This document shows positions 14,176 through 36,621 of a stretch of 64,000 bases of DNA, piece by piece. The notes beneath the pieces are model-generated. The model ran no database searches and was not told the DNA's origin. It was given only the letters and a program-made list of their open reading frames with translations. Both the position numbers and the translations under genes were made by a program. Origin of the DNA: a virus (lineage: Duplodnaviria > Caudoviricetes). The stretch is taken from positions 1 through 64,000 of the IMG/VR virus record IMGVR_UViG_3300031555_004942. One strand, 5' to 3'. Numbering within the stretch: position 1 is the first letter of the stretch; every line of letters starts with the position of its first letter.

Positions 14176-14204
14176 TTGACAAATTTAAAGTTTTATGTTA
14201 TAAT
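14176..14204 (+). promoter_or_regulatory. antisense sigmaA promoter, cassette A
   Basis: TTGACA-17bp-(TG)TATAAT facing against the - strand operon. Confidence 0.85.
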
Positions 14205-14209
14205 ATAAA

Positions 14210-14359
14210 AAGAGAAGAAAAGTATAGGTTCACTTCTCTAATATATTATTTACAAGCAGGGAAAGAAATTTCCCTTACATGTTCGTTAGAGTCATAAGAC
14301 TCCAAATAATTTGCAGGAATGAATCCTATTGTTTTGTGTTGGGGATTCATTCCATTTTT
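14210..14359 (+). ncRNA. putative antisense sRNA, cassette A
   Basis: Promoter, four hairpins, terminal GGAATGAATCC..GGATTCATTCC + T tract; homologous to cassette E. Confidence 0.7.
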
Positions 14360-14410
14360 ATTACTCAAATTATTAACAAACATATTATAAGGATAATTAA
14401 AATTATTCAT
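14246..14410 (-). CDS. 54-aa peptide, cassette A (family 2)
   Basis: SD GAAAGGAG; MNNFNYPYNMFVNNLSNKNGMNPQHKTIGFIPANYLESYDSNEHVREISFPACK. Confidence 0.75.
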   Translation of the reverse strand: MNNFNYPYNMFVNNLSNKNGMNPQHKTIGFIPANYLESYDSNEHVREISFPACK

Positions 14411-14513
14411 AATATCAACTCCTTTCAGTAAGAAATCTCAATTAAAGAATCCCTATACAATTCTTTTCAATCAAATCATAAACATCACTCCTTTCAGAAT
14501 TTAATTATTTTTT

Positions 14514-15452
14514 TTATTCTTTTACCTCACATTCATAAAAATTCTCATCACACTCAGCACAAACATAATCATACTGAGGTAAATCACTTTTAAATAGATA
14601 ACATCCACAATGAGGACATTCTTTATCTGTTCTACATTTATCAATTACTTTTACAATGGGTTCTACAATATCTGAGAGATAATCAAGTACTTCATTATTA
14701 GAAGGGATAAAGGAGCTTAACTCATTGATATAATCAACTGCTTTAACAATATCTGTTATTGATAAATCTTTTATTGTGTTTTGACAATCTTCAAAATTTT
14801 TTGTTCTATCTTGTGGTGTATCAAATTCATTAATTTTCTGATTATGATCTTCAAAAGTTTTATCAATAAGATAATCAAAACACACATCATAATATTTTTC
14901 ATAATATTTTTCTGAATTATCACTATTTATTTCATTAGAGTGTAATTCTTGAATAACTGCATATAAAAATTTTTCTTTAACTGAATGAATCCAATCCATT
15001 TTACAAATTTCGATTTCATCTTCAGAGCATTCAGGTAAATCAGGTCTTGTTATACAATAATCTGTTTCAAAATTATCATCAAGAAAGCTATTTTTAAAAT
15101 CAAGGTTCATTTTTTCAGCAATTTTATCAAAAACAGATATAAGTTCATTATACATAATATTATTTTTATTCATATAACTTTCCTCCATATAAAAATTCTT
15201 TAATACATTTTCTAACTCTTGAAGAGAAATTGTTTTAGTATATTTATAATTTGTATCCTCATCTTCATATCTACAATAAATGACATAATGAGGATTTCCA
15301 TCATTAGATGATTTATATACATCAACAAATCTTTCTGTTCCATTTTTAAACTTTTTAATAATAAAACATCCACTACTATCTGTAACATCATCAAAACTAC
15401 ATGTTTTTAATATTTCATGGATTTGCTTTGCTGTATGTTTTATATTTTTCAT
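14514..15452 (-). CDS. hypothetical protein with C-terminal Zn ribbon (possible two-gene fusion)
   Basis: CPHCG..CAEC; internal SD+ATG at 15173. Confidence 0.7.
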   Translation of the reverse strand: MKNIKHTAKQIHEILKTCSFDDVTDSSGCFIIKKFKNGTERFVDVYKSSNDGNPHYVIYCRYEDEDTNYKYTKTISLQELENVLKNFYMEESYMNKNNIMYNELISVFDKIAEKMNLDFKNSFLDDNFETDYCITRPDLPECSEDEIEICKMDWIHSVKEKFLYAVIQELHSNEINSDNSEKYYEKYYDVCFDYLIDKTFEDHNQKINEFDTPQDRTKNFEDCQNTIKDLSITDIVKAVDYINELSSFIPSNNEVLDYLSDIVEPIVKVIDKCRTDKECPHCGCYLFKSDLPQYDYVCAECDENFYECEVKE

Positions 15453-15453
15453 A

Positions 15454-15867
15454 TTAATTATCCTCCTTAACACATTTTTCAATTAAAACAATTGCATCTT
15501 CATCGACATCAAATATTGGTCCTGTTTTATTAATTATATTAAGAATTATTTTTTCGAACTCATTTCTTATTAATTCTTTGTCCATATCTAAATCTATAGA
15601 ATAAATATTAGGGCATCCACCTCCATATATATCTGTAATAAAATTAGGGTCAAAAGAATCAAACCCAGTATCTATGCAATGTATACCACACCACATATGT
15701 TCAACAGCACTATAAGCAAATACTATATCATCAGTAATTGTTCCATCATAATATACAAAAGAATAATCATTCCAATTCCATGGTTCTTCATTTTTAGACA
15801 TTACACTTTCTGATAATATTGTAGCAAAATTTTCAACAGTTATTAATTTCATATTTTTTTCATTCAT
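15454..15867 (-). CDS. hypothetical protein
   Basis: SD AAGGAG. Confidence 0.75.
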   Translation of the reverse strand: MNEKNMKLITVENFATILSESVMSKNEEPWNWNDYSFVYYDGTITDDIVFAYSAVEHMWCGIHCIDTGFDSFDPNFITDIYGGGCPNIYSIDLDMDKELIRNEFEKIILNIINKTGPIFDVDEDAIVLIEKCVKEDN

Positions 15868-15905
15868 AGTTTTTTCTCCTTTTTATAAAAATTTTTAAAT
15901 TTTAC

Positions 15906-15934
15906 TTGACAATTTTAAAATTTTATGATATAAT
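15906..15934 (+). promoter_or_regulatory. antisense sigmaA promoter, cassette B
   Basis: TTGACA-17bp-(TG)TATAAT. Confidence 0.85.
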
Positions 15935-15939
15935 ATAAA

Positions 15940-16095
15940 TAAAGAGAGGAGATATTATCTCCTCTCCTATGAAAGTTTATTTGAATTCTGTTATAGAAAC
16001 AAAATCCAAATCGGGATTAAATCCCATATTTGTGTCAAATAATATATTTGACTGAATAGAAACTACTTCGGTTGGTGGAGTAGTTTCTTTTATTT
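15940..16095 (+). ncRNA. putative antisense sRNA, cassette B
   Basis: Hairpins GAGAGGAGAT/ATCTCCTCTC, GGGAT/ATCCC, GTCAAATA/TATTTGAC; terminator AGAAACTACTTC/GGAGTAGTTTCT-TTTATTT. Confidence 0.7.
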
Positions 16096-16108
16096 GTTCT
16101 ACATTCAT
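15977..16108 (-). CDS. 43-aa peptide, cassette B (family 1)
   Basis: SD GAAAGGAGGTGAT; MNVEQIKETTPPTEVVSIQSNILFDTNMGFNPDLDFVSITEFK. Confidence 0.8.
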   Translation of the reverse strand: MNVEQIKETTPPTEVVSIQSNILFDTNMGFNPDLDFVSITEFK

Positions 16109-16136
16109 ATCATCACCTCCTTTCAATAGATATAAG

Positions 16137-16649
16137 TTAAAATATATTTCCATTCCATTCGTTATGGTATTCATCATATTCGAAATCAACATAATCATTT
16201 GTATAACGTTTCATTATTTGATTAAAGTATGACATATCATTAGAATGAAATTGAGTTTTATTAAAACAATTAATCATATGAAGAGTTTTTTCATATTCTG
16301 CTCTTAAACTTTCATCTTCTTCAACCCAATCTTCAACACATGTTTCCAATGCTATTTTTAAATACATCATATCTAAATTGTTTTGATTTTCAAACATATA
16401 TAATGTAAATACCAATGGTAATCCATTATCCTTATATTGTCCACCAGATGCAGCTAGTTCAACAATATTTGGTTCAAGAGATGCTTGATAATTAAGAATT
16501 TCTTCTATTTTTTCTGTGAGATTTTGTTGAATTCTTGATAATTCTAAATTTAATTCAGGAGTGATACTCCAATTAAGAATACCTCTTGTTTCTTCTTCTT
16601 CAATAAATAGTCTTGTTACAAATTTATCAATTTTATTATAAATAGTCAT
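16137..16649 (-). CDS. hypothetical protein
   Basis: SD AAGGAGG. Confidence 0.75.
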   Translation of the reverse strand: MTIYNKIDKFVTRLFIEEEETRGILNWSITPELNLELSRIQQNLTEKIEEILNYQASLEPNIVELAASGGQYKDNGLPLVFTLYMFENQNNLDMMYLKIALETCVEDWVEEDESLRAEYEKTLHMINCFNKTQFHSNDMSYFNQIMKRYTNDYVDFEYDEYHNEWNGNIF

Positions 16650-16863
16650 AATAATTCCTCCTTAAATTAATTCAAATAAAACATCAAATCCATTTTCCTC
16701 ACACCAATCACATTTAGACTTTTCAACATCATCTTCATCAAATTCCAAATCAATATCATGTCTAAGAGTTGGCAAATATCCTTCACGACTTTCAATAGCT
16801 GCTAAACAGTGTGAACATACCCACATTGTATTTCTTTCCATATTAATAACCTCCGATTTATTA

Positions 16864-17070
16864 CTATTCTACATATTTAATATCTTCCATTGTGACAGCA
16901 TCTTCTGGGTCTAAATCATTAAGCCATACAAGTTCATCCACATTACATTCATTAAGATGCGAGTGAATATACTCAAGTATTGCTTTATAATCATTTTTAA
17001 TTTCATTTGGTATTTCTAATTCAGATTGATAAACTGCAGTACACGCTACACTAAATTTTACTTTTGACAT
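16864..17070 (-). CDS. hypothetical protein
   Basis: SD AGGTGA. Confidence 0.7.
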   Translation of the reverse strand: MSKVKFSVACTAVYQSELEIPNEIKNDYKAILEYIHSHLNECNVDELVWLNDLDPEDAVTMEDIKYVE

Positions 17071-17126
17071 ATTATCACCTTTAACCTTTCTATTTTTTGA
17101 TAAAGCTATTTTTCATTTATTTTGCA

Positions 17127-17324
17127 TTAAATATCAAAATCAATTTCTAATTCTTCTCCAACTTTTTCCCACTTAGTAACGGACAATTCATATCCCTCAT
17201 CTTTAGGGAATTTTTGAATAAAAACTTTTAATTTTTCTTTCAAATCCCATGGGTTAGTAATACTTCTTTCTGCAGTTGCAAAGAAGTGTTTTCCATTTAG
17301 TGTTACATTGATTTCATAATACAT
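17127..17324 (-). CDS. hypothetical protein
   Basis: SD AAGGAG. Confidence 0.7.
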   Translation of the reverse strand: MYYEINVTLNGKHFFATAERSITNPWDLKEKLKVFIQKFPKDEGYELSVTKWEKVGEELEIDFDI

Positions 17325-17337
17325 AAGATCATCTCCT

Positions 17338-17841
17338 TTATATATCCTGTTTTATATTTCTTTTTTGAATTGCTGCAAAAACGATATTCTCAAGAATTTC
17401 ATCACCCGACATTTCATCTTCATAAGAAAATTCTTTTTCAAAATTAAAAGAAATATCAATTATAAATGATTCATCTTGTATAAGTTGTTTTATAATATTT
17501 TCATCTTTTATATAATCCTTTAAATTCACTTTTATTCCATTAATAATTGTAAATTCATATTTTTTTTCATTTAAAAGACCATATTCTTGATATTCCTCAT
17601 CATAAGTTTCATCAAGTTCAATTTGAACATCTGTAAGAATATCATTATATAAATCACCATAAAAATTATTATCAACATGATAATGCAAGCTATATAATAA
17701 TTCTTTTATAATCTCAGCAAGATTATCTTTTGTAAAACTATGAAAATTACAACTTATAAAATCATATGCTTTTTGTGGTTCATTTTTTAAAATCTCTGTA
17801 AATTCCATCATTGTTTTAGTATCTTCGTAATTATTACTCAT
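17338..17841 (-). CDS. acidic hypothetical protein
   Basis: SD AAGGAGG. Confidence 0.75.
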   Translation of the reverse strand: MSNNYEDTKTMMEFTEILKNEPQKAYDFISCNFHSFTKDNLAEIIKELLYSLHYHVDNNFYGDLYNDILTDVQIELDETYDEEYQEYGLLNEKKYEFTIINGIKVNLKDYIKDENIIKQLIQDESFIIDISFNFEKEFSYEDEMSGDEILENIVFAAIQKRNIKQDI

Positions 17842-18016
17842 TTTTTATTTCCTCCTTTTAATTATCTAATTGATATTTTTCAATTATTTCTTTTTTTGTC
17901 TTTTCAGCATCGAAAGTTATAACAGATTCATAAACATTCCAAGCTTCATCCATTAATTCAACCAACCATGAATTTGGACCTGATTCAGTAACATTAAAGA
18001 ACATAGAGAAACCTCC

Positions 18017-18520
18017 TTAATTATCAAAATATGGACAACCATTAAATTTCATTTCTGAAGGTATAATTTCTTCAGGGTAAGCAAATATTTGTTTATTGTT
18101 TGAAAGTTCAATCAACCACATTGGTAAATGTTCGATAAATATACCATCATCTTCAGTAGCTCTTCTAATTACTTTAAATTTATAATTTTTATATTCTTCA
18201 TATTGTTCAAAAGGTGTCCAATATTTATCTGAAAATCCTTCTTGTTCGTAACAATTAAAACAATCTTTTACAAACTCTTGATGTTTTTCATCAGACATCT
18301 CATCTCTATCCTCTGGATATTTAATTTTCATTTCTTCCCAAGTCATAACAATGCCTCCTTTTTGTTTCTCCCATTTTTCGAATTCATTCCATACGGATTC
18401 TTTATAATATACATCACTTAAAAAATAATTAGGATGTTGTTCTAAAAATATTTCTATATGAGCAAATTTTTCTTCACCAATTTTGTTTTTTATTGTTTCA
18501 TATTCTTGCAAAATACTCAT
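18017..18520 (-). CDS. hypothetical protein (possible two-gene fusion)
   Basis: SD AAGGAGG; internal SD+ATG at 18346. Confidence 0.7.
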   Translation of the reverse strand: MSILQEYETIKNKIGEEKFAHIEIFLEQHPNYFLSDVYYKESVWNEFEKWEKQKGGIVMTWEEMKIKYPEDRDEMSDEKHQEFVKDCFNCYEQEGFSDKYWTPFEQYEEYKNYKFKVIRRATEDDGIFIEHLPMWLIELSNNKQIFAYPEEIIPSEMKFNGCPYFDN

Positions 18521-18536
18521 TATTATACCTCCTTTT

Positions 18537-18911
18537 TTAATCTTCATCTTCAAAAGTCTCTGCAGATATTAATACTTCATTACAATCTTCACATTCAATA
18601 CAAATATCATCAGGGTCATTTATATCTCCATAAGCTACACAAACGATATTGTGTCCAATATGATTTTTAAGCAATTCATACATCATATTTGTTTTTACTA
18701 TTTGAATTTTTGCTGTAATAATTATATCTTCTGGATTTTTAATATTATATTTTTTAATAAAATCTTCTAAAGCATCTCCATTAATTTTATCCCATATAGA
18801 AAAATTATTATTTTCAATATAATTTTTATAATCAATAGCCTCTGAGTTATTATTTGCATAACTATTATCCCAATGTACTCCATTTAAAAAAATATTTACT
18901 ATATACTTCAT
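18537..18911 (-). CDS. hypothetical protein
   Basis: HIGH..CIECEDC motif; SD. Confidence 0.7.
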   Translation of the reverse strand: MKYIVNIFLNGVHWDNSYANNNSEAIDYKNYIENNNFSIWDKINGDALEDFIKKYNIKNPEDIIITAKIQIVKTNMMYELLKNHIGHNIVCVAYGDINDPDDICIECEDCNEVLISAETFEDED

Positions 18912-18924
18912 AATATTTCTCCTT

Positions 18925-19110
18925 TCAAACTTTCAAATTATTTTCTTTTACTAATCTTTGCCACATCATACGATTTACTTCATTGCTATAAGGAATTGTA
19001 ATATGACACCCTCTTTCATTATAAAATTTCACATGATCTGAACGACCTTGTATGATTTTATTAAATCCATTATTAATTAAAATCTTTTTAGCTATTCTGA
19101 ATTTCATCAA
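18925..19110 (-). CDS. hicA: HicA-family mRNA interferase (no adjacent HicB)
   Basis: KILINNGF..GRSDHVKF..HITIP pattern; about 60 aa, basic. Confidence 0.7.
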   Translation of the reverse strand: MMKFRIAKKILINNGFNKIIQGRSDHVKFYNERGCHITIPYSNEVNRMMWQRLVKENNLKV

Positions 19111-19405
19111 ACTCCTCCTTAAAGTTTTCTTTTAATGAATTAATATAATATCTTTTATCTTCACACTTTACAAAGAAACCATGATTTTTATTATAGTATA
19201 TTTTCAATTTAGTATGAAATGTTATATAAATACCAAACGAAGGGAATATATGATATATATTATATAAATAACCCATAGATACTTTAACATTATCATCATA
19301 ATATAACATTCCACTTCCTTGAGATGCATGACAAAGATGTGTTAATTTTTTATCTTGTATGAAAGACTCTAATACATTATAATCTTTTAAAACATAATTT
19401 TTCAT
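19088..19405 (-). CDS. hypothetical protein
   Basis: SD AAGGAGG. Confidence 0.7.
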   Translation of the reverse strand: MKNYVLKDYNVLESFIQDKKLTHLCHASQGSGMLYYDDNVKVSMGYLYNIYHIFPSFGIYITFHTKLKIYYNKNHGFFVKCEDKRYYINSLKENFKEEFDEIQNS

Positions 19406-19419
19406 AACTAATTCCTCCT

Positions 19420-19749
19420 TTATCCTAATAACCAATTTACAACAATACTTTTTATTATATCAACATTATTTATTTTTAAATTTTTATCTTTATAAATAAA
19501 ATATAAATCATTATTTTCATCTATATCTAACCAAACTTCTGTTGTTGATTCAAATCTATTTGTGACATAAATATTTAATTTTTTAATCAAATCAGGATTT
19601 AAATGTAATGGGTCAAATTTAGATGATATTTTATTATATATTATTTCTTTTAATAATTTTTCATCACCTTTTATTTCATACATTAAATCTTCAGTTTTTC
19701 CATCTTTAAAATCTTGTAAATCTTTACTAATTAATTCAAATTTTTTCAT
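19420..19749 (-). CDS. hypothetical protein
   Basis: SD AAGGAGG. Confidence 0.7.
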   Translation of the reverse strand: MKKFELISKDLQDFKDGKTEDLMYEIKGDEKLLKEIIYNKISSKFDPLHLNPDLIKKLNIYVTNRFESTTEVWLDIDENNDLYFIYKDKNLKINNVDIIKSIVVNWLLG

Positions 19750-19762
19750 AACTAATTCCTCC

Positions 19763-20605
19763 TTAATAATTCATTCCTAAAAAGTACTGAATAATATCAT
19801 TTTTATTATTCCAATCAAGACTATCACTTGTAATATTATTCATATCTACAGTATCACATGACCCATCCGAATAAGTTACAATTTTATCAATATAAACATT
19901 ATATAGATTATGAGTAGTAAATATATTAAATGAAACATTATTTGATGGTTTAAAAGTAGCAATTAAATAATCATTAGTATCCATTTCGCAATCATCTATT
20001 GCTTGATATAAATCATCTTCATCGGGTATTTCATATCTGTCAATATATAATCCTGCTTCTATTTCTTTGTCTAAAACAAAGAATTCAAAATTCATATTCA
20101 CATAAGCTTGTTTTTTTATTCCTCCCATTTCTCTTAATCTATCTAAATCTTCATCTTTCCAAATTTTGAATTTTTTTAAACCTATTTCTGTTGATGTAGT
20201 TATTAAATGCGTAATCCAACCTAATGCAAATTCTGCCATTGTAGAATATCTATATTCTATTGTATTATTTTTTACACATAATTCCATAGTGTGTACATCA
20301 AAAGAAAGAGTATAATCATAATATTGACAAATTTGAAAAATAAGTTGAATTCTTTTAACCCATTCCCTCAAAAAAGTTTCATCATCATTATAAAAATCCA
20401 TAATTGCATCATATTCAGATATATTATTTAAGTTATATTTACTATGATAAAATTCATTATAATATAAAACACATAGATTAAAAGATGTATCACAATCAAG
20501 CTTAAGATTATTCATTTCATTTTGTAATATATCATAACCTAAATCAAATACTCTTTTCATAACTCCTATACTTTCATTACTTCCAACATTTTTTAATACT
20601 AACAT
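19763..20605 (-). CDS. hypothetical protein
   Basis: 280 aa, SD. Confidence 0.75.
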   Translation of the reverse strand: MLVLKNVGSNESIGVMKRVFDLGYDILQNEMNNLKLDCDTSFNLCVLYYNEFYHSKYNLNNISEYDAIMDFYNDDETFLREWVKRIQLIFQICQYYDYTLSFDVHTMELCVKNNTIEYRYSTMAEFALGWITHLITTSTEIGLKKFKIWKDEDLDRLREMGGIKKQAYVNMNFEFFVLDKEIEAGLYIDRYEIPDEDDLYQAIDDCEMDTNDYLIATFKPSNNVSFNIFTTHNLYNVYIDKIVTYSDGSCDTVDMNNITSDSLDWNNKNDIIQYFLGMNY

Positions 20606-20625
20606 AATTAATACTTCCTTTCTTT

Positions 20626-21150
20626 TTATAAATTTATTACTGAGAATGAATTTCCTCTACAATGAGGGCATTTACAATAATTTGGATTTTTTAATACTCC
20701 TCTAACGAACTTACCCGCTTTTTCATATAACCACTCCTTTCCACATGTATTACACATCAATTTATATCTGTAATGTTTAGTTTCATTAAGATATTTACTA
20801 TATTCAGGAACATCACTATGAGTTTTTACATTATATCCAAATTTGCGATTAACTAAAGAAGCAAGATATTGAAAATTTGGACCATGATTCATACAACCAT
20901 TAACACTATGGATTAATTCATGCATCATTGTATTTTTTACATATTCTGGACATACTTGCATGAAATTTTTAGAAATTTTTATTGTATAAAACATAGATTT
21001 TCGATTATAACAACATTGACCTAATTTTTTTCTAAACCGAGGATTAATTTCCAAATTGTAAAGTTTTGAGTTAAGTTCTGAAAATCCTAAACTTACCAAT
21101 TGCTGTTTACAGGTATACATCATTTGTTCTAAATTAGATAAAGTCAACAT
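20626..21150 (-). CDS. SprT-like zinc metalloprotease
   Basis: KKLGQC, TMMHELIH, HGPNF, C-terminal CxxC..CPHC ribbon. Confidence 0.85.
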   Translation of the reverse strand: MLTLSNLEQMMYTCKQQLVSLGFSELNSKLYNLEINPRFRKKLGQCCYNRKSMFYTIKISKNFMQVCPEYVKNTMMHELIHSVNGCMNHGPNFQYLASLVNRKFGYNVKTHSDVPEYSKYLNETKHYRYKLMCNTCGKEWLYEKAGKFVRGVLKNPNYCKCPHCRGNSFSVINL

Positions 21151-21200
21151 AATAACATCCTTTCTGAGAGTCTAACCACCTACTCACAGGGTAATTCACA

Positions 21201-21608
21201 TTAGTTTATTTTACTATAATCATAATTGGTGTTTTTCATATCTTTTAAATAATCAATAGTCTTCTCAATGTTTTCCCAATGAGAAAGGTCACTATCTGCA
21301 CATTTTTTAAAAGCCCAATATATTGTCCCTATATCTTTTTCAATATCATCAAAATCATCCTCAGAGACATCATGATAATCTTTTAACTTATAAAGAAAAT
21401 CATTTAATATATCTTCTTTTTCAATCTCATTTTCATAATGTTCTTCTATTTCATGTCTTGCTAAATCAATAGATAATGGGACAATTCGAGTCTTATATCC
21501 AGAGTTAATATAGACTAATTGCATTTCTTCTGCTGAATGCATTTCGAAAAATATTTCATTTTCTATTTTATCTTCTTTTTGAGCTGTTAATAAATATCTT
21601 TTAATCAT
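21201..21608 (-). CDS. hypothetical protein
   Basis: SD GAAAGGAG. Confidence 0.7.
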   Translation of the reverse strand: MIKRYLLTAQKEDKIENEIFFEMHSAEEMQLVYINSGYKTRIVPLSIDLARHEIEEHYENEIEKEDILNDFLYKLKDYHDVSEDDFDDIEKDIGTIYWAFKKCADSDLSHWENIEKTIDYLKDMKNTNYDYSKIN

Positions 21609-21625
21609 AATTTTATCTCCTTTCA

Positions 21626-21910: not shown

Positions 21911-22039
21911 ACTTATTCCTCCTCATCTACTGCAAATTCCATTGATATAATTTGTTCCCAAACTTCAGAAGGAGTTAATCCTAAATGAATTAACTCATCA
22001 TATGTTTCTTTTCTTGATTGAGTCATTACATTACCTCCT

Positions 22040-22744: not shown

Positions 22745-22821
22745 TTTTCATTTCTCCTTTTTTGATTTTTTATTTTAAGTAGCATTTTATGCTTAATGTT
22801 ATTCATCACCCAACATTTAAT

Positions 22822-23846: not shown

Positions 23847-23875
23847 TTGACAAATATAATTATTTATGATATAAT
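23847..23875 (+). promoter_or_regulatory. antisense sigmaA promoter, cassette C
   Basis: TTGACA-17bp-(TG)TATAAT. Confidence 0.85.
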
Positions 23876-23880
23876 ATAAA

Positions 23881-24028
23881 CAGAGAGAGGAGATTTCTCT
23901 CCTCTCATATATTTATTTAAATTCATTAAATGGTATAAAACCCAATTCAAAGTCAAATCCTAAATTTGGGTCAAATAATGAATTCTTTTTTAATTCAGGT
24001 ACTTCGTTTGAAGTACTTGTTTTTATTT
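23881..24028 (+). ncRNA. putative antisense sRNA, cassette C
   Basis: 5' GAGAGGAGA/TCTCCTCTC hairpin; terminator CAGGTACTTC-GTTT-GAAGTACTTG-TTTTTATTT. Confidence 0.7.
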
Positions 24029-24047
24029 GTTCATTATTATCGTTCAT
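23913..24047 (-). CDS. 44-aa peptide, cassette C (family 1)
   Basis: SD GGAAGGAG; MNDNNEQIKTSTSNEVPELKKNSLFDPNLGFDFELGFIPFNEFK. Confidence 0.8.
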   Translation of the reverse strand: MNDNNEQIKTSTSNEVPELKKNSLFDPNLGFDFELGFIPFNEFK

Positions 24048-24121
24048 ATTTCTCAACTCCTTCCTTGTTATATTTTTAATTAATTAAATCATATCCATCA
24101 CCCCTTTCAATAAATTATTTT

Positions 24122-26694: not shown

Positions 26695-26760
26695 TTTGGA
26701 TTGCCTCCTATTAAATAAAATATTTTCTGCTTAAAGTTATTCATCAGCCAACTATGTAAA

Positions 26761-28978: not shown

Positions 28979-29036
28979 AATACATACTCCTTTCTTAATT
29001 TAATTTTAATAAAAAGAGAGAAGATGAACTTCTCTC

Positions 29037-29564
29037 TTAATATACAGTAACTATCTTATCTAAACCTATTGTCATAAATTCTGGTTTTTCTTTATGTTTC
29101 CAAAATGATGGTTGCATAATTCCCAATTCTTTTAATTGTTCATAATTTACAGGAACCCCATTTATCATATATATGGTCTCAGGTTTACCATTAATATTAG
29201 GAAATGCTCCAATATAATATTGATTTAAATTTCTATGTTTTAATAATATCTTATCAATATGATAATACCATGGTTCTCTACTTGATGGTACATATCCAAG
29301 TTGCATTCTTCTTTCAATCACTCTTTTTGTTTTATCATACGATATTCCTATTCTGACAGACATAGTTGTTAATTTTGTTACATTATACTGTGATTTATAA
29401 TGTTCGGATACACTCTTATTCACATCTGTATAATATTGAATTTTAAAATATGTTCCTGGGTGTTTAGCATAAAGTTGTTTTAAGATTGTTTGTTGCTTTT
29501 TAGGAAACCCTAATACATCAAACCTCATAGTATTCTTTTGTGTTCTTGTGATTTTCTTTTCCAT
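29037..29564 (-). CDS. basic hypothetical protein
   Basis: SD; followed by AGAGAGAAG/CTTCTCTCT terminator. Confidence 0.75.
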   Translation of the reverse strand: MEKKITRTQKNTMRFDVLGFPKKQQTILKQLYAKHPGTYFKIQYYTDVNKSVSEHYKSQYNVTKLTTMSVRIGISYDKTKRVIERRMQLGYVPSSREPWYYHIDKILLKHRNLNQYYIGAFPNINGKPETIYMINGVPVNYEQLKELGIMQPSFWKHKEKPEFMTIGLDKIVTVY

Positions 29565-29604
29565 AATAAAACTCCTTTTTTATTTATTTTATTTTTTTAT
29601 AGTA

Positions 29605-29862
29605 TTAAAATTCGATACAATAATTATAGCCTGTAGTCTCTGCTTTATAACCTTCTGTCTTTAAATATTCACAAGCAAGTTCAATAATTGTATCAGTATC
29701 CCAATCATAAGGATTCTCCTCTTTGTATTTTTCAATGGCTTTTTTAGTTCTTTCAATTACTCCATTTGTTAATTCTGTTTTTCCCTCTACTTTAATATAT
29801 GCATCAATATCTGTGCCACATCCATCAACGTTTACATCAATCATTTTAATAATCTGAATCAT
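29605..29862 (-). CDS. hypothetical protein
   Basis: SD GAAAGGAG. Confidence 0.75.
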   Translation of the reverse strand: MIQIIKMIDVNVDGCGTDIDAYIKVEGKTELTNGVIERTKKAIEKYKEENPYDWDTDTIIELACEYLKTEGYKAETTGYNYCIEF

Positions 29863-29886
29863 AATAAATTACTCCTTTCAATTATC

Positions 29887-30339
29887 TTACTCCCAATATG
29901 TTTTTATAAATCCTTGTTCTGGGTCGTCATAGCTTCTGTTTTTACATTCTTCATATGTTCCTTTATAAGAAGCTGAAACAAGTTTTAAAGGATATTTTAG
30001 ATTGTCTATATCTTTATCGGAACATGTAATTTTGATTCCTTTGCAACGATTCTCTTGCAGACAAGTATTTCCTCGTTCTAAGATATCTTTCATTGTAGAT
30101 GGATATTCTTCACCTTCAAATATCATACCTTCACATTTGTTCCAATATGCAAGAATTCCATATAGATCCGCATTTTCTTTTGTATCATCATATTCAAATA
30201 CAAGTCCATAATCATAATATCTGTCTTTAATAAACCCACCTCCAAATTCTTGTGGAATTAAAATCTTATATACATCTCCATCCACCAAATTTCTTCTTTT
30301 TGTTGTTTTGTCTGCTCTTTCCCATGAAAAACTTCCCAT
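29887..30339 (-). CDS. hypothetical phage protein
   Basis: MGSFSW..YYDYG..DLYGILAYWN..DPEQG; SD. Confidence 0.75.
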   Translation of the reverse strand: MGSFSWERADKTTKRRNLVDGDVYKILIPQEFGGGFIKDRYYDYGLVFEYDDTKENADLYGILAYWNKCEGMIFEGEEYPSTMKDILERGNTCLQENRCKGIKITCSDKDIDNLKYPLKLVSASYKGTYEECKNRSYDDPEQGFIKTYWE

Positions 30340-30360
30340 GTTATTTTACCATCCTTTCTA

Positions 30361-30558
30361 TTATTTAATTAAGTTATTATGTTTTAATATGCATTTATTG
30401 CATACATAAACCTCAGTTGTTTTGTTATCTATAACAGGATCAGAAATTTTTATTGAATATTTAACACTCTTTGTAGTCTCACAAAAATGACATTTGAGAT
30501 TTTTATTTTGCCAATCATTTATAAGTTTACTTCTCATGATTAAACTTTTTTCTTCCAT
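30361..30558 (-). CDS. small Zn-finger protein
   Basis: CHFC..CNKC. Confidence 0.7.
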   Translation of the reverse strand: MEEKSLIMRSKLINDWQNKNLKCHFCETTKSVKYSIKISDPVIDNKTTEVYVCNKCILKHNNLIK

Positions 30559-30613
30559 AATATTTCCTCCTTATAAATTCTTAATATTTTATTTATTGAT
30601 TATTATATATTTT

Positions 30614-30919
30614 TTAATTTACATCAAAAGTAAAAGTAGCTATACCAAATTCTTCTTCTGTAAGAATGAAAAAGCTATTTTCATTTGCATCATTTACATC
30701 ATGCAAATAATAACCTTTGTTATCTTTTTTTATAAGTTTACATTCTGCTCCATTCATACAAATCACTTCATGATTAAGAGAACATAAATTATAATAATCT
30801 CCATAATATTGCATAGAATCATTATCATAAGTTATATGTTGTATAATATAACCATTATCTAAAACAACTTTATTTTGATTATAAAGATTTTCAATGCTTA
30901 AACAATATGTTTTATTCAT
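30614..30919 (-). CDS. hypothetical protein
   Basis: SD AAGGAG. Confidence 0.7.
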   Translation of the reverse strand: MNKTYCLSIENLYNQNKVVLDNGYIIQHITYDNDSMQYYGDYYNLCSLNHEVICMNGAECKLIKKDNKGYYLHDVNDANENSFFILTEEEFGIATFTFDVN

Positions 30920-30934
30920 CTTTTTAATCTCCTT

Positions 30935-31222
30935 TTAATCTTCAAACTTTGGTTCATGTTTTACAGCTTTTAATTCTTTAGTATACTCAACCTTGCCACA
31001 TTTCTTACAAGTTCTACTCCATCTTGCAACCTTACTTTCTGTATATCCTACTAATTCAGGCATATAATCACTACCTATAAACCTATCTTCAAATCTAGGC
31101 ATCTGTTTAATTTCAGGATTATACTCGATATCCCCCCATTCATGATTGCATTCAGATTGCTCTTTACGTAGATTTGCTAATTCCTTTTCATACCTACTTC
31201 TGATTTCTTCCTCTCTTGTCAT
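30935..31222 (-). CDS. hypothetical protein
   Basis: CNHEW..CKKCG; SD. Confidence 0.7.
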   Translation of the reverse strand: MTREEEIRSRYEKELANLRKEQSECNHEWGDIEYNPEIKQMPRFEDRFIGSDYMPELVGYTESKVARWSRTCKKCGKVEYTKELKAVKHEPKFED

Positions 31223-31223
31223 T

Positions 31224-31997
31224 TTAATTACTCCTTTCTTTTGCATAATTATATATCTTATCAGTAATATCTTCCTCAAAAATATTACCTATAAAATATT
31301 CATCTTTTTCATCCATATGACGATAACTCATATCACAACTCGAATATAAGTTACCATTATAAGAAATATATATTTGACCCTCATTTATCCATATATCTTC
31401 ATCTTGATATTCAGATAATTCAAGATAAGGCTTTTCAAGAGGTGTTGTTCTATATCCCCATGACAGATCTTTAGCTCTACCTTCTTCTATAAGATAAACA
31501 TAACTAAAATCTGTCTTTTTATCTTGTGTTCGAATATATTCTCTTTCCTTTTCATAATATTCTCCATAATCTTCTATGATTTCATATTGATATTTACATA
31601 TGTTTTTGTTAAGTTTATCATATGGAACAAATTCTTCATGAAACATATCCGAAGAAAAAGCTAAACCACATATTTCTGGTTCACTTGATATATTATATAA
31701 TCTATCACAAAGTTCAACAAGTTTATGATGATATACTTTACCGTTTGTGACAATATAAAACGCATATAATGAATTTAACCGATTAACAAATGATTCAAGA
31801 ATGTCAAGAGCTAATGTTGGTTCACCTCCTCCAAAAGTTATTTCTGTTTGAGACATATCAAAAATATCAAATATCCGATTAATTACTTCTTCGGACATCT
31901 TTTTATTTTGAGCAGGTCCTCTCAAACAATGTTTACATGCAATATTGCATTTTCTACTTATTTCTGGAATTAATTGATAAGCATGAATTTTACACAT
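31224..31997 (-). CDS. radical SAM protein
   Basis: CNIACKHC motif, FGGGEP, VTNG, partial SPASM-like tail. Confidence 0.9.
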   Translation of the reverse strand: MCKIHAYQLIPEISRKCNIACKHCLRGPAQNKKMSEEVINRIFDIFDMSQTEITFGGGEPTLALDILESFVNRLNSLYAFYIVTNGKVYHHKLVELCDRLYNISSEPEICGLAFSSDMFHEEFVPYDKLNKNICKYQYEIIEDYGEYYEKEREYIRTQDKKTDFSYVYLIEEGRAKDLSWGYRTTPLEKPYLELSEYQDEDIWINEGQIYISYNGNLYSSCDMSYRHMDEKDEYFIGNIFEEDITDKIYNYAKERSN

Positions 31998-32122
31998 ATT
32001 ATTTATCCTCCTCATCTTTTATTATATTTTTATTTTCACAAGAGAAAAAATCTTGTTCTAACATGCAATTTTCACAAGCTTCAAAATCTATTCCATTATT
32101 AGGACAATCTTTGCAATTCATA

Positions 32123-32731
32123 TCATTTATCCTCCTTATTTATGTTTTTTGATATTCTATCCAAAGCTATTTTAAATGGATCTATATCTTCTAAACATGA
32201 ATGTAATAAATCCCAATTTGTTGTACCTATCCTATTCATTGTTTTATCCATATAAAAACCTAACATATGTTGAATAACTTCTGATGCAATAGATGCAGAT
32301 AGTAAATATTGTTGAATATAATTATCATTTTCAGAAAATTCTTGAATCTTTTCAATATCTATTATCTCTTGTACTAACATAGGAAATATAAATTCCAAAT
32401 GCATCATATCGAAGTCAATCATATGAGGTTTTACATCATAATCTTTACATACTTGTTGTACTTTTTTGGGGTCTAAATATTCTGCTGTTGGCACAAGATA
32501 TAATGTTGAATAAATTTTATTGTTTAATTCTTTAATTTCTAAAATTTCGAGATGAAGAACTAAATGATAATCAAATTTCATAGCATCTTCTTCAAAATCA
32601 TATTTATATATTTCTTTTGATTTAAATATAATTTCATCATCTGTAGTCCATTCGATTTCCCAATAATCTTTCCAATCAGTCCGATTATGCTTCTTTGGGG
32701 TGATACTCCATACTGTTAGATAGTTATTCAT
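32123..32731 (-). CDS. hypothetical protein
   Basis: SD AAGGAGG. Confidence 0.75.
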   Translation of the reverse strand: MNNYLTVWSITPKKHNRTDWKDYWEIEWTTDDEIIFKSKEIYKYDFEEDAMKFDYHLVLHLEILEIKELNNKIYSTLYLVPTAEYLDPKKVQQVCKDYDVKPHMIDFDMMHLEFIFPMLVQEIIDIEKIQEFSENDNYIQQYLLSASIASEVIQHMLGFYMDKTMNRIGTTNWDLLHSCLEDIDPFKIALDRISKNINKEDK

Positions 32732-32749
32732 AATAAATTCCTCCTTATT

Positions 32750-33151
32750 TTATTTTATAACAATACCATATTTTTTACATTTATTTATTATTTCTTCAAT
32801 AGTTTTTTTACCTAAATTTCTAATTTGCATCAAATCATATTTAGTTTTTCCTTCAAAATCTGAAAGATAGTAATATCCTCCTCTTGTGCAACAATTATAT
32901 GCACGAACAGAAAGATCTAAATTTTCAATAGATAGATCTCGTTGTCCATAAATCATTGTTCCATCATAATATTTAACCGTCCATTTTAATCCTTCAATAA
33001 AAGCTTTTGCTTCCTCTTCTGTTTCAAATTCTGCTATTGTATTAGATGATGAAAAAATTCCATTTGCTTTTACTTTTTTATTATCTTGAAAAATTTCTAT
33101 TTTTTTATATCCTTTTATAAGAATAATATTTGTTAAAATTTTTTCATACAT
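32750..33151 (-). CDS. protein with RNA polymerase alpha-subunit C-terminal domain
   Basis: SIENLDLSVRAYNCC..LMQIRNLGKKTIEEI matches alpha-CTD. Confidence 0.85.
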   Translation of the reverse strand: MYEKILTNIILIKGYKKIEIFQDNKKVKANGIFSSSNTIAEFETEEEAKAFIEGLKWTVKYYDGTMIYGQRDLSIENLDLSVRAYNCCTRGGYYYLSDFEGKTKYDLMQIRNLGKKTIEEIINKCKKYGIVIK

Positions 33152-33157
33152 ATTATT

Positions 33158-33346
33158 TCACTCCTTATTTATAGCTTTTGAACATCTTTCTTTAAACTCT
33201 TTAAATATTTGTTCTTGTTTAAATTTAAATTCTTCTTCTGCCATTTTTATTTCTCTCATTGTATATCGTGAGCAAGTTTTAAGTCCACAAGTTTGTGTGT
33301 TATTTGTAGCATACCCACATGAACAATCATTAGCTATATATTTCAT
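33158..33346 (-). CDS. hypothetical protein
   Basis: SD AAGGAG. Confidence 0.65.
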   Translation of the reverse strand: MKYIANDCSCGYATNNTQTCGLKTCSRYTMREIKMAEEEFKFKQEQIFKEFKERCSKAINKE

Positions 33347-33360
33347 AGAACTTCACTCCT

Positions 33361-33705
33361 TTATAATAAATTATATAATTTATCTGCTGTTTCTTCAAGT
33401 GTTTTTTGTTTCCATTGGGCATCTTCAACTAAATCTACAACACTATTTGGAATTCCATTTTTACCTCGATTTTCAACATATACTTCAACTTCTTCATCTA
33501 TATCAAAATTACAAGCATATTTATAAAATTCTTGAATGAACCCATTGTTTGTTCCATCAAAGAATATTGTTATCCACCAATCTTCTCCTAATGGTGTTGA
33601 TTGATTAAGTTCAACAAGTATTCCATTACTTTGTTTTGTTATTTCTCCAACAACAAAATCATTATCTTCAAGAATTTTTACAATATCTTTTTTAAATTTT
33701 TTCAT
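33361..33705 (-). CDS. hypothetical protein
   Basis: SD AAGGAGG. Confidence 0.75.
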   Translation of the reverse strand: MKKFKKDIVKILEDNDFVVGEITKQSNGILVELNQSTPLGEDWWITIFFDGTNNGFIQEFYKYACNFDIDEEVEVYVENRGKNGIPNSVVDLVEDAQWKQKTLEETADKLYNLL

Positions 33706-33717
33706 TTTTATTCCTCC

Positions 33718-34002
33718 TTAAATACGATATGAGATTGTGTAATCACAAACTTCAACATCTAGATTATTTATTTTCTTGTAATAACTATTAAGTTTTAAAT
33801 CTACAATATCACAATATTCTTTGCAGTCTTTAGCAAGTCTTGAACAAATCCATCTATGAATATCATAAATATCATTTCTTTCCAATCCCCATTCATGATT
33901 ACCTGATACTTGAACTACAATTGTTTTAATTCCATCATCAATGTTTTGACTTATTTTTTTCATGTCAACAGTTCCATATCCTTGCCAATGTTTTGCTTTC
34001 AT
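33718..34002 (-). CDS. hypothetical protein
   Basis: SD GAGGAG. Confidence 0.75.
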   Translation of the reverse strand: MKAKHWQGYGTVDMKKISQNIDDGIKTIVVQVSGNHEWGLERNDIYDIHRWICSRLAKDCKEYCDIVDLKLNSYYKKINNLDVEVCDYTISYRI

Positions 34003-34004
34003 AA

Positions 34005-34289
34005 TTAAAACTCCTCTCCATCATAAACATAATCATACTTTAAACCATATAGTTTTTCATTTATTTGATCTCTGTGTAATTTATTCCAATCTAATATAAA
34101 TTCTCTTCTTTGATCAGGTTTATTCATTTTTTCATTATCATAAAATATATCAGGATTATTATTTAAAATATTATTAATGATAAACCTTTTTAATTTTTTT
34201 ATGGATGTTGTTGCCATACATATACCCATAGGTTGGTCTATTAAGTTACATTTTTGAACAATAAATATTTGTTTTTTACTTGTTTCCAT
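34005..34289 (-). CDS. hypothetical protein
   Basis: SD AAGGAG. Confidence 0.7.
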   Translation of the reverse strand: METSKKQIFIVQKCNLIDQPMGICMATTSIKKLKRFIINNILNNNPDIFYDNEKMNKPDQRREFILDWNKLHRDQINEKLYGLKYDYVYDGEEF

Positions 34290-34335
34290 AATCGTAAATC
34301 TCCTTTAAAAAAGAGAGGAGAATTATCTCCTCTCC

Positions 34336-34827
34336 TTAATTTAATTCTATATCAATAATTGATTCTTCTTTATTTATTTGATAAATAGGTGGTAATGAAG
34401 GACATTGTTCCCATTTTATATACTTTGATAAATTTTTAGTTAAACTTATTTTTACTTTAACTATATACTCATCTGAATCAACATATCCTCCATTGTATGT
34501 TGTTTGTACTTCAACAAAGAGTTCATTATCATAAATTCTTTCAATTTCACAACATTGAAATATTATATCTTTAAATGTTTCAGTTGATGGTTTGCTATCT
34601 CCTATATATCTATAAAGATAAGATTCTCCAATAAATTTTCCTTCAATGTTTTTTTCTGTTATTGCAAACATTGTGACATATTTATTTTTTTCATTTTGTT
34701 GTTTATAATAATAATTATAATTTTTCCGAACTGGACATTTATCACAATTTGTTGCATTCATTACTATACAATTTAAACAAACTAAGTCCATAGCTTCTGT
34801 TAACTTGTTATATTCTTCTTGGTTCAT
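34336..34827 (-). CDS. hypothetical protein with N-terminal Cys cluster
   Basis: CLNC..CDKCPV; followed by GAGAGGAGA terminator. Confidence 0.75.
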   Translation of the reverse strand: MNQEEYNKLTEAMDLVCLNCIVMNATNCDKCPVRKNYNYYYKQQNEKNKYVTMFAITEKNIEGKFIGESYLYRYIGDSKPSTETFKDIIFQCCEIERIYDNELFVEVQTTYNGGYVDSDEYIVKVKISLTKNLSKYIKWEQCPSLPPIYQINKEESIIDIELN

Positions 34828-34865
34828 AATTTTACTCCTTTTTTATTATTTTTTAATTTTAAGAC

Positions 34866-34894
34866 TTGACAATTTTAAAATTATATGATATAAT
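34866..34894 (+). promoter_or_regulatory. antisense sigmaA promoter, cassette D
   Basis: TTGACA-17bp-(TG)TATAAT. Confidence 0.85.
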
Positions 34895-34899
34895 ATACA

Positions 34900-35037
34900 A
34901 AAGAGGAGATTTCTCTCCTCTGATGTATTAATTGTATGGAATAAAATCCAAATTAGGATTAAATCCCAAATTTATGTCAAATATAATATTTGACTCTGTA
35001 GAGACTATTTCATGGGGAGGAGTAGTCTCTTTTATTT
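34900..35037 (+). ncRNA. putative antisense sRNA, cassette D
   Basis: Same hairpins as B; terminator AGAGACTATTTC/GGAGTAGTCTCT with a compensatory change relative to B. Confidence 0.7.
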
Positions 35038-35053
35038 GTTCATTATTATCCAT
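34928..35053 (-). CDS. 41-aa peptide, cassette D (family 1)
   Basis: SD GAAAGGAG; MDNNEQIKETTPPHEIVSTESNIIFDINLGFNPNLDFIPYN. Confidence 0.8.
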   Translation of the reverse strand: MDNNEQIKETTPPHEIVSTESNIIFDINLGFNPNLDFIPYN

Positions 35054-35133
35054 ATATTTCAACTCCTTTCTATATTAAATTTTAAATAACTTAAATCATA
35101 AGCATCACTTCTTTCAAATATAATTTTATTATT

Positions 35134-36033
35134 TTATGCTGCGATTTTTGAATTAACCAACTGTATGAAATTCATCATTAGTCTTGGGTCAAATGTAACT
35201 GTTACAAATTTATTTTCTTCTGCTGTCGAAGTTTTTCTTGTTGGTTCTCTATGTGTTATATAATCTGAATATGCATTAATCATTCCCCACATTGAATTCC
35301 TAAAGTTACCATTGTCATTTACTTTATATGCTTGCATAAATTGTGTTCTTGCATTTTCCATACGTTCAATCTGATAATCTTTCATATCGTATTGTATAGG
35401 AAATAATTCATTAATAACTTTTTGAACCTCTATGTCAGAAACTAGTGTGGTTGCCCATCGTGTTGCTTGTTTATTAAGTTCCTGCATGTAATCTGCAGTT
35501 CCTTTAAGAACATGGAATGCTTCTTTAAGACGAACTTCTGCAAGAGAACTATGTCTAATTGTGATTGTATTTGGGGATTCTCTGAATGCAATGTTAAATT
35601 GATTTTGACATACAATTCTTAATGGACAAATTGTTGTCTGAAGCTGAAAACGTCCATTATGAGAATTTCTAAATATCAGATGAGGTTTAAATTCATCACC
35701 TAATATTTTAATAGGTTCTAAAGAAGCAATTAAATAAATCATGCCTCCTGATGTCTCCCCAATCTTTTCAAACTGAATATCATCTTTTAGATAATCTATA
35801 AATCCAAAAGCATCACGATTCTGAACAACATTATACTTATCTGATACAATTCCATAAACATGATTATCTGTATTTCTTACAGTTGCTTGATTTCCATCAA
35901 TTATTGTACCATCTGCAAGAAATATTGGTTTTTTATGAACTTCATAATCAAGCCCACCAATTCTCAATGCTTCATCTACTGTTGTTGCCCCTATTGTATT
36001 TGTTCCTAAATTTGTAAATGTGTTTGTTCTCAT
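35134..36033 (-). CDS. DUF932/DUF945-family phage/plasmid protein
   Basis: VSDKYNVVQNRDAF, NSHNG, PLRIVCQN, IRH, WGMINAYSDY. Confidence 0.85.
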   Translation of the reverse strand: MRTNTFTNLGTNTIGATTVDEALRIGGLDYEVHKKPIFLADGTIIDGNQATVRNTDNHVYGIVSDKYNVVQNRDAFGFIDYLKDDIQFEKIGETSGGMIYLIASLEPIKILGDEFKPHLIFRNSHNGRFQLQTTICPLRIVCQNQFNIAFRESPNTITIRHSSLAEVRLKEAFHVLKGTADYMQELNKQATRWATTLVSDIEVQKVINELFPIQYDMKDYQIERMENARTQFMQAYKVNDNGNFRNSMWGMINAYSDYITHREPTRKTSTAEENKFVTVTFDPRLMMNFIQLVNSKIAA

Positions 36034-36051
36034 AATATTTTCCTCCTATAA

Positions 36052-36261
36052 TTAAATATGTTTTTTAATATTGATTAAATCTACAATGTTTTCAAGAAGT
36101 TCAATTCTTTCACTATAACTCATAACTTCTTTATTTACTTGATAATCACCTGTAAGTCTTTCAATTATACTATCAAAAACTTCTTCTTTAGTTCTTCCTG
36201 AGATTGTATAAATTTTCTTTTGTGTATTACAGTTATTACAATAAGTGTCTTTTGGATGCAT
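36052..36261 (-). CDS. hypothetical protein
   Basis: SD AAGGAG. Confidence 0.65.
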   Translation of the reverse strand: MHPKDTYCNNCNTQKKIYTISGRTKEEVFDSIIERLTGDYQVNKEVMSYSERIELLENIVDLINIKKHI

Positions 36262-36302
36262 AATAATTTCTCCTTTTTTATAAAAAATTTTTAAAATAAT
36301 AC

Positions 36303-36331
36303 TTGACAATTTTATTTTTTTATGTTATAAT
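36303..36331 (+). promoter_or_regulatory. antisense sigmaA promoter, cassette E
   Basis: TTGACA-17bp-(TG)TATAAT. Confidence 0.85.
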
Positions 36332-36336
36332 GTAGA

Positions 36337-36479
36337 TATAGAAGTAAAGTATAGGTTTACTTCTTGATATATTATCTACATATAGGTAGAATTAATTCTT
36401 CTACTTGTTCACTATAACAGCAGTTATAGGTTTTTGATGGAATGAACACAGGGTTGAATGCAGGGTTCATTCCTTTTTT
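36337..36479 (+). ncRNA. putative antisense sRNA, cassette E
   Basis: AGAAGTAAA-GTATAGG-TTTACTTCT; GTAGAA/TTCTAC; CTATAAC/GTTATAG; GGAATGAAC/GTTCATTCC-TTTTTT. Confidence 0.72.
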
Positions 36480-36530
36480 ACTATCAATAATAATCTTTTG
36501 ACCATTAGTAATAATATAATGATTATTCAT
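36372..36530 (-). CDS. 52-aa peptide, cassette E (family 2)
   Basis: SD AAAGGAG; MNNHYIITNGQKIIIDSKKGMNPAFNPVFIPSKTYNCCYSEQVEELILPICR. Confidence 0.75.
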   Translation of the reverse strand: MNNHYIITNGQKIIIDSKKGMNPAFNPVFIPSKTYNCCYSEQVEELILPICR

Positions 36531-36621
36531 ATTATCATCTCCTTTACTTATATAATCTTAATTAAAGAATTCCTATACAATTCTTTTTTTATTAAATCAT
36601 AATACATCAACTCCCTTCATA

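Follow-up and report, generated by a model that had tools for sequence, protein, structure and literature searches.

The first 64 kb of a phage record (IMGVR_UViG_3300031555_004942; 117,109 bp, 27% GC), which we call the window, contain five small cassettes, A to E, in which a peptide gene is paired with a predicted antisense RNA. Each consists of a minus-strand open reading frame (ORF) of 41-54 aa with a strong Shine-Dalgarno (SD) sequence, a perfect convergent sigmaA promoter and a set of hairpins, and each antisense RNA is predicted to be about 136-154 nt long and to end at a terminator inside the ORF. Covariation and codon statistics indicate that the antisense promoter, the terminator and the reading frame are all under selection, and that these uncatalogued cassettes are selected on both strands. 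The explanation that we favor, and regard as evenly poised between right and wrong, is that they encode a toxic soluble peptide inhibitor under antisense control resembling that of toxin-antitoxin (TA) loci of type I. A first-pass annotation of the window had proposed such a soluble-peptide family; the convergent 3′-overlapping layout, selection on the antisense-strand terminator, purifying selection on the peptides and the lack of a match to any known family all speak for the proposal, whereas two of the 20 ORFs now available are broken.

These 20 distinct cassettes comprise the five in the window and 15 on related contigs. A DUF932 search gave phage contigs, on which two A-like cassettes were found through their promoters and not through their peptides; further contigs were fetched by peptide match and then scanned for promoters. 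All 20 copies have a perfect TTGACA-N17-TATAAT promoter. Those in the window start at 14176, 15906, 23847, 34866 and 36303, as first annotated, with the TG extension lying inside the spacer. In total the window holds 11 perfect sigmaA promoters against 0.24 expected by chance, and the five cassette promoters among them are oriented against the gene run in which they lie. The five units do not form the single family originally described; they fall into two subfamilies, B/C/D and A/E, with 70-76% DNA identity within each and mostly promoter-region similarity between them. The A and B peptide profiles align with an hhalign probability of 5.9%, and a permuted common origin, suggested by the shared words GFIP and EQxKE, is not supported.

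The B-type terminator has 10 bp that are 100% paired across 11 distinct sequences, with four pairs changed on both sides. None of 500 shuffles matched this paired fraction, a test inflated by the relatedness of the sequences, and slid controls reached 47-65%. Thirteen cells of the alignment are G-U pairs, which can form only on the plus strand and become A-C mismatches on the mRNA strand. Plus-strand-only G-T pairs in the terminators of A to D and a compensatory change between B and D had been pointed out previously, and both are real. The A-type terminators differ wholly in sequence between groups and keep their stems and T-rich tails; in eight of eight cases they are at least as stable on the plus strand. 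The B-type covariation and the A-type plus-strand stability together provide strong indirect evidence for a selected plus-strand transcript. The predicted RNA begins with the complement of the mRNA 3′ hairpin, ends in a stem and T tract, located near codons 4-6 in the B type and 17-18 in the A type, and spans most of the ORF (70-90%), not its ribosome-binding site (RBS). Single RNAs fold into four to five hairpins, close to the four first described, but in a comparison of 12 B-type copies conservation is limited to the 5′ hairpin and the terminator and does not extend to the middle hairpins. No conserved antiterminator was found in the consensus folds. A helix sequestering the SD in B mRNAs appears in the consensus fold but shows almost no covariation and was set aside. 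Rfam gave no family match; its E-value matches all scored far below the gathering scores and were rejected as identities.

The reading frame is likewise constrained. In a codon model, omega is 0.14 for B (log-likelihood gain of 35.6 over omega = 1) and 0.32 for A (gain of 7.9), and a counting test puts pN/pS for B at 0.44 (p = 0.002 when columns are shuffled). Where the B region lies outside the conserved stem, differences at the three codon positions amount to 0.29/0.17/0.38, the second position being the most conserved, and none of 5000 column shuffles keeps all frames open; indels in the cassette ORFs are nearly all multiples of three. This pattern of substitution indicates purifying selection on the peptides.

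The statement that the peptides are not membrane helices also stands. No transmembrane (TM) helix was detected, the highest 19-residue hydropathy being 0.54 and the grand average of hydropathy negative, compared with 1.8-2.6 in hydrophobic TA-like loci of the same layout (see below). The peptides are hydrophilic, with a net charge of -3 to -6 in the B types, and structure prediction finds both types unstructured, with no stable helix and a predicted template-modeling score of 0.15; they are probably soluble and disordered. No match to an already described family was found for the peptides in Pfam, PHROG, NCBIfam or the PDB, nor for the RNAs in Rfam, and Atlas gave no usable match. Matches to transcription activator-like effectors in the PDB were sums over repeats, with no single stretch passing. 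The long proteins that cluster with peptides A and B (P0002-4, P0006) are DUF4340 and PGA_cap proteins that are unrelated to them and were grouped by artefact, and so they do not show the cassette ORFs to be stubs of larger genes; longer B-type relatives were searched for and none was found, which is weak evidence. Protein searches returned 14 A-type and 18 B-type peptide clusters, queries included, and when 1.84 billion representatives were searched with a profile, just three more full-length relatives and one 34-aa partial appeared, which points to a narrow peptide family. No cassette was found among GenBank phages or PLSDB plasmids.

All five units of the first-pass annotation, with their ORFs, SDs, promoters and hairpins, are present where it placed them. 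In cassette A, the antisense promoter located by the promoter scan, perfect in -35 and -10 and extended by TG, lies at 14176..14204 (+); the predicted RNA of about 150 nt (14211..14360, +) has its 5′ hairpin at 14211-14239 and its terminator, followed by a T tract, at 14316-14353. The 54-aa ORF (14246..14410, -) is preceded by an upstream SD (SD1) with a Met-Ile-stop minigene at 14471..14494 (-). Cassette B has its promoter at 15906..15934 (+), a predicted RNA of about 154 nt at 15941..16094 (+; 5′ hairpin 15944-15966, terminator 16058-16088) and an acidic 43-aa ORF at 15977..16108 (-) that lacks the minigene. The corresponding features of C are a promoter at 23847..23875 (+), a predicted RNA of about 146 nt at 23882..24027 (+; 23885-23906 and 23996-24019), a 44-aa ORF at 23913..24047 (-) and SD1 with a Met-Ile-stop minigene at 24084..24108 (-). 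Those of D are a promoter at 34866..34894 (+), a predicted RNA at 34901..35036 (+; 34902-34921 and 35000-35030), a 41-aa ORF at 34928..35053 (-) and a weaker SD1 with a Met-Ile-stop minigene at 35091..35115 (-). Finally, E has a promoter at 36303..36331 (+), a predicted RNA of about 143 nt at 36338..36480 (+; 36340-36364 and 36439-36473), a 52-aa ORF at 36372..36530 (-) and SD1 with a Met-Ile-stop minigene at 36592..36618 (-). The RNA lengths of about 140-155 nt given previously fit all of these but D, at about 136 nt. A full sixth copy was not found elsewhere in the phage genome.

Each cassette extends from SD1 to an AT-rich UP tract, between the stop of one gene and the RBS of the next, and these limits agree with the extent of conservation among relatives, which reaches from the upstream SD to the AT tract beyond the -35. 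The next ATG begins 38-43 nt beyond the -35, which is the 39-44 bp reported before if counted inclusively; relatives mostly have 36-42, with outliers at 31 and 54. The distance is nearly fixed because the UP tract, which is common to the phage's other sigmaA promoters too, abuts the RBS of the next gene. The peptide ORF stops 6-8 nt before a minus-strand hairpin, and two such hairpins score as terminators. Near-identical stand-alone hairpins occur at 34310-34337 and 29014-29038, and since the RBS of the next gene follows them directly, read-through or antitermination in the minus-strand run is implied. No recognizable promoter for the peptide was found. The only match in the leader, TTGAAA-N16-TTTAAT-like and not conserved, lacks the -11 A and was rejected as a sigmaA promoter; a peptide promoter may yet lie inside the upstream gene, or be phage-specific.

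The cassettes are surrounded by small variable accessory genes, and their neighbors vary among relatives: FtsK is preceded by an A-type cassette in the window and by a B-type cassette in contig L056. One copy, in L069 (P0018), has an E-like front fused to an A-like end, a mosaic that suggests recombination between copies, and a copy in L055 is without the RBS region of its closest relative. On the favored reading, the cassettes are mobile units.

Two features go beyond the earlier description, an upstream minigene and a complementarity between leader and 3′ loops in the A/E subfamily. Most cassettes, including A, C, D and E, open with an SD-ATG-ATT minigene of 2-15 codons, some 43-70 nt before the peptide start. 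In A, the leader hairpin (14444..14466, -) carries the loop GUAUAGG (14452-14458), complementary to the loop CCUAUAC of the mRNA 3′ hairpin (14222-14228). The same pair occurs in E (leader hairpin 36564..36586, -; loops 36572-36578 and 36349-36355) and in L146. Relatives carry other alleles, AUAGGG/CCCUAU in L057 and UUGUGAGC/GCUCACAA in L001, and the leader loop always lies 46-49 nt upstream of the peptide ATG. Cognate duplexes are predicted at -8 to -13 kcal/mol against -0.6 to -4 between unrelated alleles, the cross-allele exception being the two related alleles GUAUAGG/CCUAUAC and AUAGGG/CCCUAU. Shuffling gives p values of 0.011 (GUAUAGG/CCUAUAC), 0.012 (AUAGGG/CCCUAU) and 0.0007 (UUGUGAGC/GCUCACAA), and across relatives the two loops appear to covary. 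This putative clasp is possible only in the mRNA because the leader lies beyond the terminator of the antisense RNA. The leader loop has the same sequence as the 5′ loop of the antisense RNA. A fourth candidate, UGUUGGG/CUCAACA (L001 at 7213), was dropped because its leader motif recurs within another SD-minigene, at junctions that have no cassette.

Under the favored explanation, the peptide, if made unchecked, would damage the cell or slow it down by binding a protein of host or phage. Host sigmaA polymerase would be a constitutive source of the antisense RNA, both from DNA entry onwards and in the lysogen, while the peptide mRNA would arise only by read-through from the phage gene run. The antisense RNA would meet the mRNA loop-to-loop at the 3′ hairpin, zip over 70-90% of the ORF and trigger RNase III decay, so that peptide would be made only past a threshold, when operon read-through outruns the antisense RNA, or when that RNA decays first after loss of the phage. 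In A and E, the intramolecular clasp might mask the entry loop and store the message, like the end-pairing in aapA1 (PMC5416894), and the clasp might be opened by a ribosome that finishes the minigene 4-5 nt short of the leader hairpin. We advance only tentatively the fuller version of this reading, in which the cassettes are mobile, promoterless type I units encoding soluble, disordered toxins with a cytoplasmic target, whose mRNA is kept in store by a covarying 5′-3′ kissing-loop clasp that mimics the antitoxin entry loop and is opened by the minigene ribosome.

Several results weigh against the toxin reading or parts of it. The counting test for the A type gives a pN/pS of 0.65 (p = 0.09); the sets used for omega were partly gathered by protein search and include recombinants, and RNA constraints also act on them. 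The A-subfamily peptides are very divergent, and some of their conserved residues are encoded in RNA stems. Two of the 20 copies, both found by promoter, have an ORF broken by one lesion, a stop at codon 6 in L056 (at 1596) and a one-base insertion in a T run in L058 (at 10471), and keep their promoter and hairpins. Since no promoter of its own was found for the peptide, its mRNA may be nearly absent in the lysogen, which weakens the case for post-segregational killing. No loop clasp was found in the B types. Three copies, B among them, lack the minigene leader, a loss consistent with deletion between two similar SD blocks. SD-minigenes also stand at other junctions of these phages; the role of the minigene is therefore uncertain, and it may not be cassette-specific.

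Escherichia coli ibs/Sib loci are multi-copy tiny ORFs mostly covered by convergent antisense RNA. Their Ibs peptides are 18-19 aa long, very hydrophobic, chromosomal and expressed from their own promoter, and the cassettes differ in these respects. As in type I systems, sequence and covariation predict a small ORF and a cis antisense RNA gene, with promoter and terminator, overlapping its mRNA. Precedents for the 3′ overlap in Bacillus subtilis are txpA/RatA, bsrG/SR4, bsrE/SR5 and yonT-yoyJ/SR6 (PMC6562991, PMC8270828), of which bsrG/SR4 and yonT/SR6 are carried by SPbeta (PMC8270828). Like these loci, the cassettes oppose a convergent cis-antisense RNA of 100-220 nt to the 3′ part of an mRNA with an ORF of under 60 aa, have a very strong SD and lie in a prophage context (PMC6562991, PMC8270828). 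Unlike them, they have no detected promoter of their own and an antisense overlap of 70-90% of the ORF. Five interchangeable copies share a single gene run, and the upstream minigene and the putative loop clasp are further differences; there is no sequence or Rfam match between the two. The B. subtilis toxins have TM helices and the cassette peptides have none; more generally, the latter lack the hydrophobic TM helix and charged tail of Firmicute membrane toxins such as TxpA, BsrG, Fst and CD2517.1.

Type I systems associated with prophages and CRISPR in Clostridium difficile (CD2517.1-RCd8, CD2907.1-RCd9 and CD0977.1-RCd11; PMC5961336, PMC7699646) share the layout, with sigmaA-driven convergent antitoxin RNAs of about 134-140 nt and several copies per element, and RCd8-10 resemble the cassettes in layout and RNA size (PMC5961336); a loop-loop start followed by RNase III decay has been proposed there (PMC5961336, PMC7699646). 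The toxins there are hydrophobic at the N-terminus, carry a basic tail and are expressed from promoters of their own, whereas the B-type cassette peptides are acidic. In Helicobacter pylori aapA/IsoA and in hok/Sok, the two ends of the mRNA make a contact that could hold the message inactive and concealed from the antitoxin (PMC5416894), as might be the case in A and E, and hok/mok has an upstream translated leader (PMC6562991) where the cassettes have a minigene. Those systems use 5′-3′ helices and an antitoxin against the 5′ region, in contrast to the loop-loop contact, antisense RNA over the 3′ part and soluble peptide of the cassettes.

A pattern built from the cassette promoter and 5′ hairpin retrieved seven metagenomic loci of the same layout with hydrophobic, mostly basic-tailed peptides (L060:9024, L076:13245, L085:8993, L095:773, L098:1711, L108:1012 and L118:553). 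They have convergent perfect promoters and sense promoters of their own, and most share a GGCTTTGC motif in leader and antisense RNA; the one peptide tested gave a weak Pfam match only. Homology to these loci through a shared GAGAGGA hairpin was rejected, as the B-type covariance model gave hairpin-level scores only, and by these comparisons the loci are analogues of the cassettes.

A possible, if doubtful, alternative keeps the antisense control and makes the peptides non-toxic effectors, acting in anti-defence, the lysis-lysogeny decision or host takeover, with the RNA threshold setting lytic timing; such loci would lack toxicity, by which TA systems are defined, and would not count among them. 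That the peptides are selected, soluble, disordered and without a promoter of their own suits this view, as do the location among small variable accessory genes and the tolerance of broken copies. The perfect, conserved antisense promoter together with the A/E clasp argues against it, since such layered safeguards are typical of toxic products (PMC6562991, PMC5416894).

The first-pass annotation had offered, as its other option, an antisense checkpoint on the lytic gene run. In the form weighed here, transcription into the downstream genes would be attenuated by the RNA or by the convergent promoter itself, with the ORF no more than a translated leader. The short interval from ORF stop to minus-strand hairpin, the near-fixed distance from promoter to next gene and the retention of the RNA parts in broken copies are compatible with this, and RNase III cutting of the duplex would sever the polycistronic message as a side effect. 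We nevertheless find the checkpoint unlikely. The peptide is selected beyond the mere frame (omega 0.14), the downstream genes differ, with A-type and B-type cassettes interchanging before FtsK, the U tract after the hairpin of E is poor, and similar terminator-like hairpins stand at many junctions of the same run that have no cassette. Phage RNAs that restrain expression within a lytic operon include P1 C4/icd and P4 CI. These are same-strand processed RNAs or have separate target sites, with a fixed leader and fixed genes; the cassette RNA is instead a full cis-antisense copy and its downstream gene is variable. Neither the antiterminator folds nor the fixed downstream gene of attenuators of the pT181/pIP501, P1 C4 and P4 CI type were found.

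It is improbable that the plus-strand RNA is itself the real product, a trans-acting small RNA or protein-binding RNA for which the ORF is incidental or a titrator. Promoter and terminator are intact in every copy, those with broken ORFs included, and many conserved residues are encoded in palindromic stems; however, the B RNA has no conserved structure in its middle part, which varies with the periodicity of codons, the ORF indels nearly all respect the frame, and the A/E clasp is possible only in the mRNA. In AT-rich DNA one might suspect that the cassettes are repeats without function, or ORFs that face promoters by chance. Promoter count, terminator covariation, frame shuffles and omega all far exceed controls, however, and covariation and selection have already largely refuted this very remote reading.

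With few exceptions, type I toxins are membrane helices. Those named as cytoplasmic, SymE and RalR, are enzymes (PMC6562991). If the toxin reading is true, short disordered soluble peptides under antisense control would represent a new mode of action and could reveal new bacterial targets, in a class to which searches for hydrophobic ORFs are blind by design. With the loop alleles that occur naturally, an mRNA clasp competing with an antisense RNA for the same loop could readily be tested by compensatory mutation, and recombining repeated cassettes, of which mosaics were found, may shuffle the accessory genes of SPbeta-like phages. Should the peptides be harmless, the cassettes would still be an uncatalogued family of antisense-gated small proteins.

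The phage is most likely temperate and SPbeta-like, with a low-GC Firmicute host, because it encodes a tyrosine integrase (outside the window), a YonO-like polymerase, an extracytoplasmic function (ECF)-sigma-like ORF (40980-41513, -; NCBIfam matches below cutoff), an SLH-subtilase and a 3D-domain protein. The polymerase, a protein with an RNA-dependent RNA polymerase fold at 46208-49117 (+; PF05183), is read as a YonO-type phage RNA polymerase like that of SPbeta (PMC8270828). A 7175-aa ORF lies outside the window (G000 83324-104851). Long ORFs of the phage read through under translation table 11, and amber recoding does not apply to it. The only genome match is an 8-kb contig binned in a Bacteroidales metagenome-assembled genome, probably by mistake, as the SLH and 3D domains, the style of the SDs and the sigmaA promoters indicate a low-GC Firmicute. 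The cassettes lie within a minus-strand run of small genes from 44.7 to 13.0 kb, inferred to be early, which includes DUF932, GP88, SprT-like and FtsK genes and has perfect sigmaA promoters at 45.0 and 44.0 kb.

Some gene junctions carry a conserved element of 28 nt, found at 22787-22814 and 26725-26752 (-) of the window and in relatives (L056:2826, L058:3878, L065:5729, L001:6958 and L055:9993); several copies encode an SD-led Met-Leu-Gly-Asp-Glu-stop minigene with a second, overlapping ATG, and SD-minigene leaders seem to be a recurring device in this phage group. A sixth unit of related layout, at 39519-40226, begins with a pistol ribozyme (40127-40188, -; Rfam RF02679), followed by an SD-minigene, a second SD, a 121-123-aa ORF (39635-40006, -) and 3′ hairpins. 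Convergent to it is a perfect sigmaA promoter at 39519, and the RNA made from this promoter may end at a hairpin near +62. The ORF has no Pfam or PDB match; its CHGG and ACCFAS words recall a His/Cys protease dyad.

Three tandem AAAAAGTTCCC-type repeats with hairpins at 44900-45010 (-), just downstream of the promoter at 45038, are a possible operator array. An element of about 32 nt occurs twice (38456-38487 and 37499-37530, -) just upstream of RBSs, with more shared sequence further upstream, and is a candidate phage-specific promoter or operator. At 10709-10900 (+), a perfect sigmaA promoter is followed by hairpins, about 400 nt of apparently non-coding sequence and then the 3D-domain gene, making this region a candidate small RNA or long leader. 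The interval of about 1 kb where the gene runs converge (11956-12998) holds no convincing genes; it has tracts with a purine/pyrimidine skew and, near 12480-12520 and 12825-12865, two hairpins that resemble each other, and is possibly an origin or packaging region.

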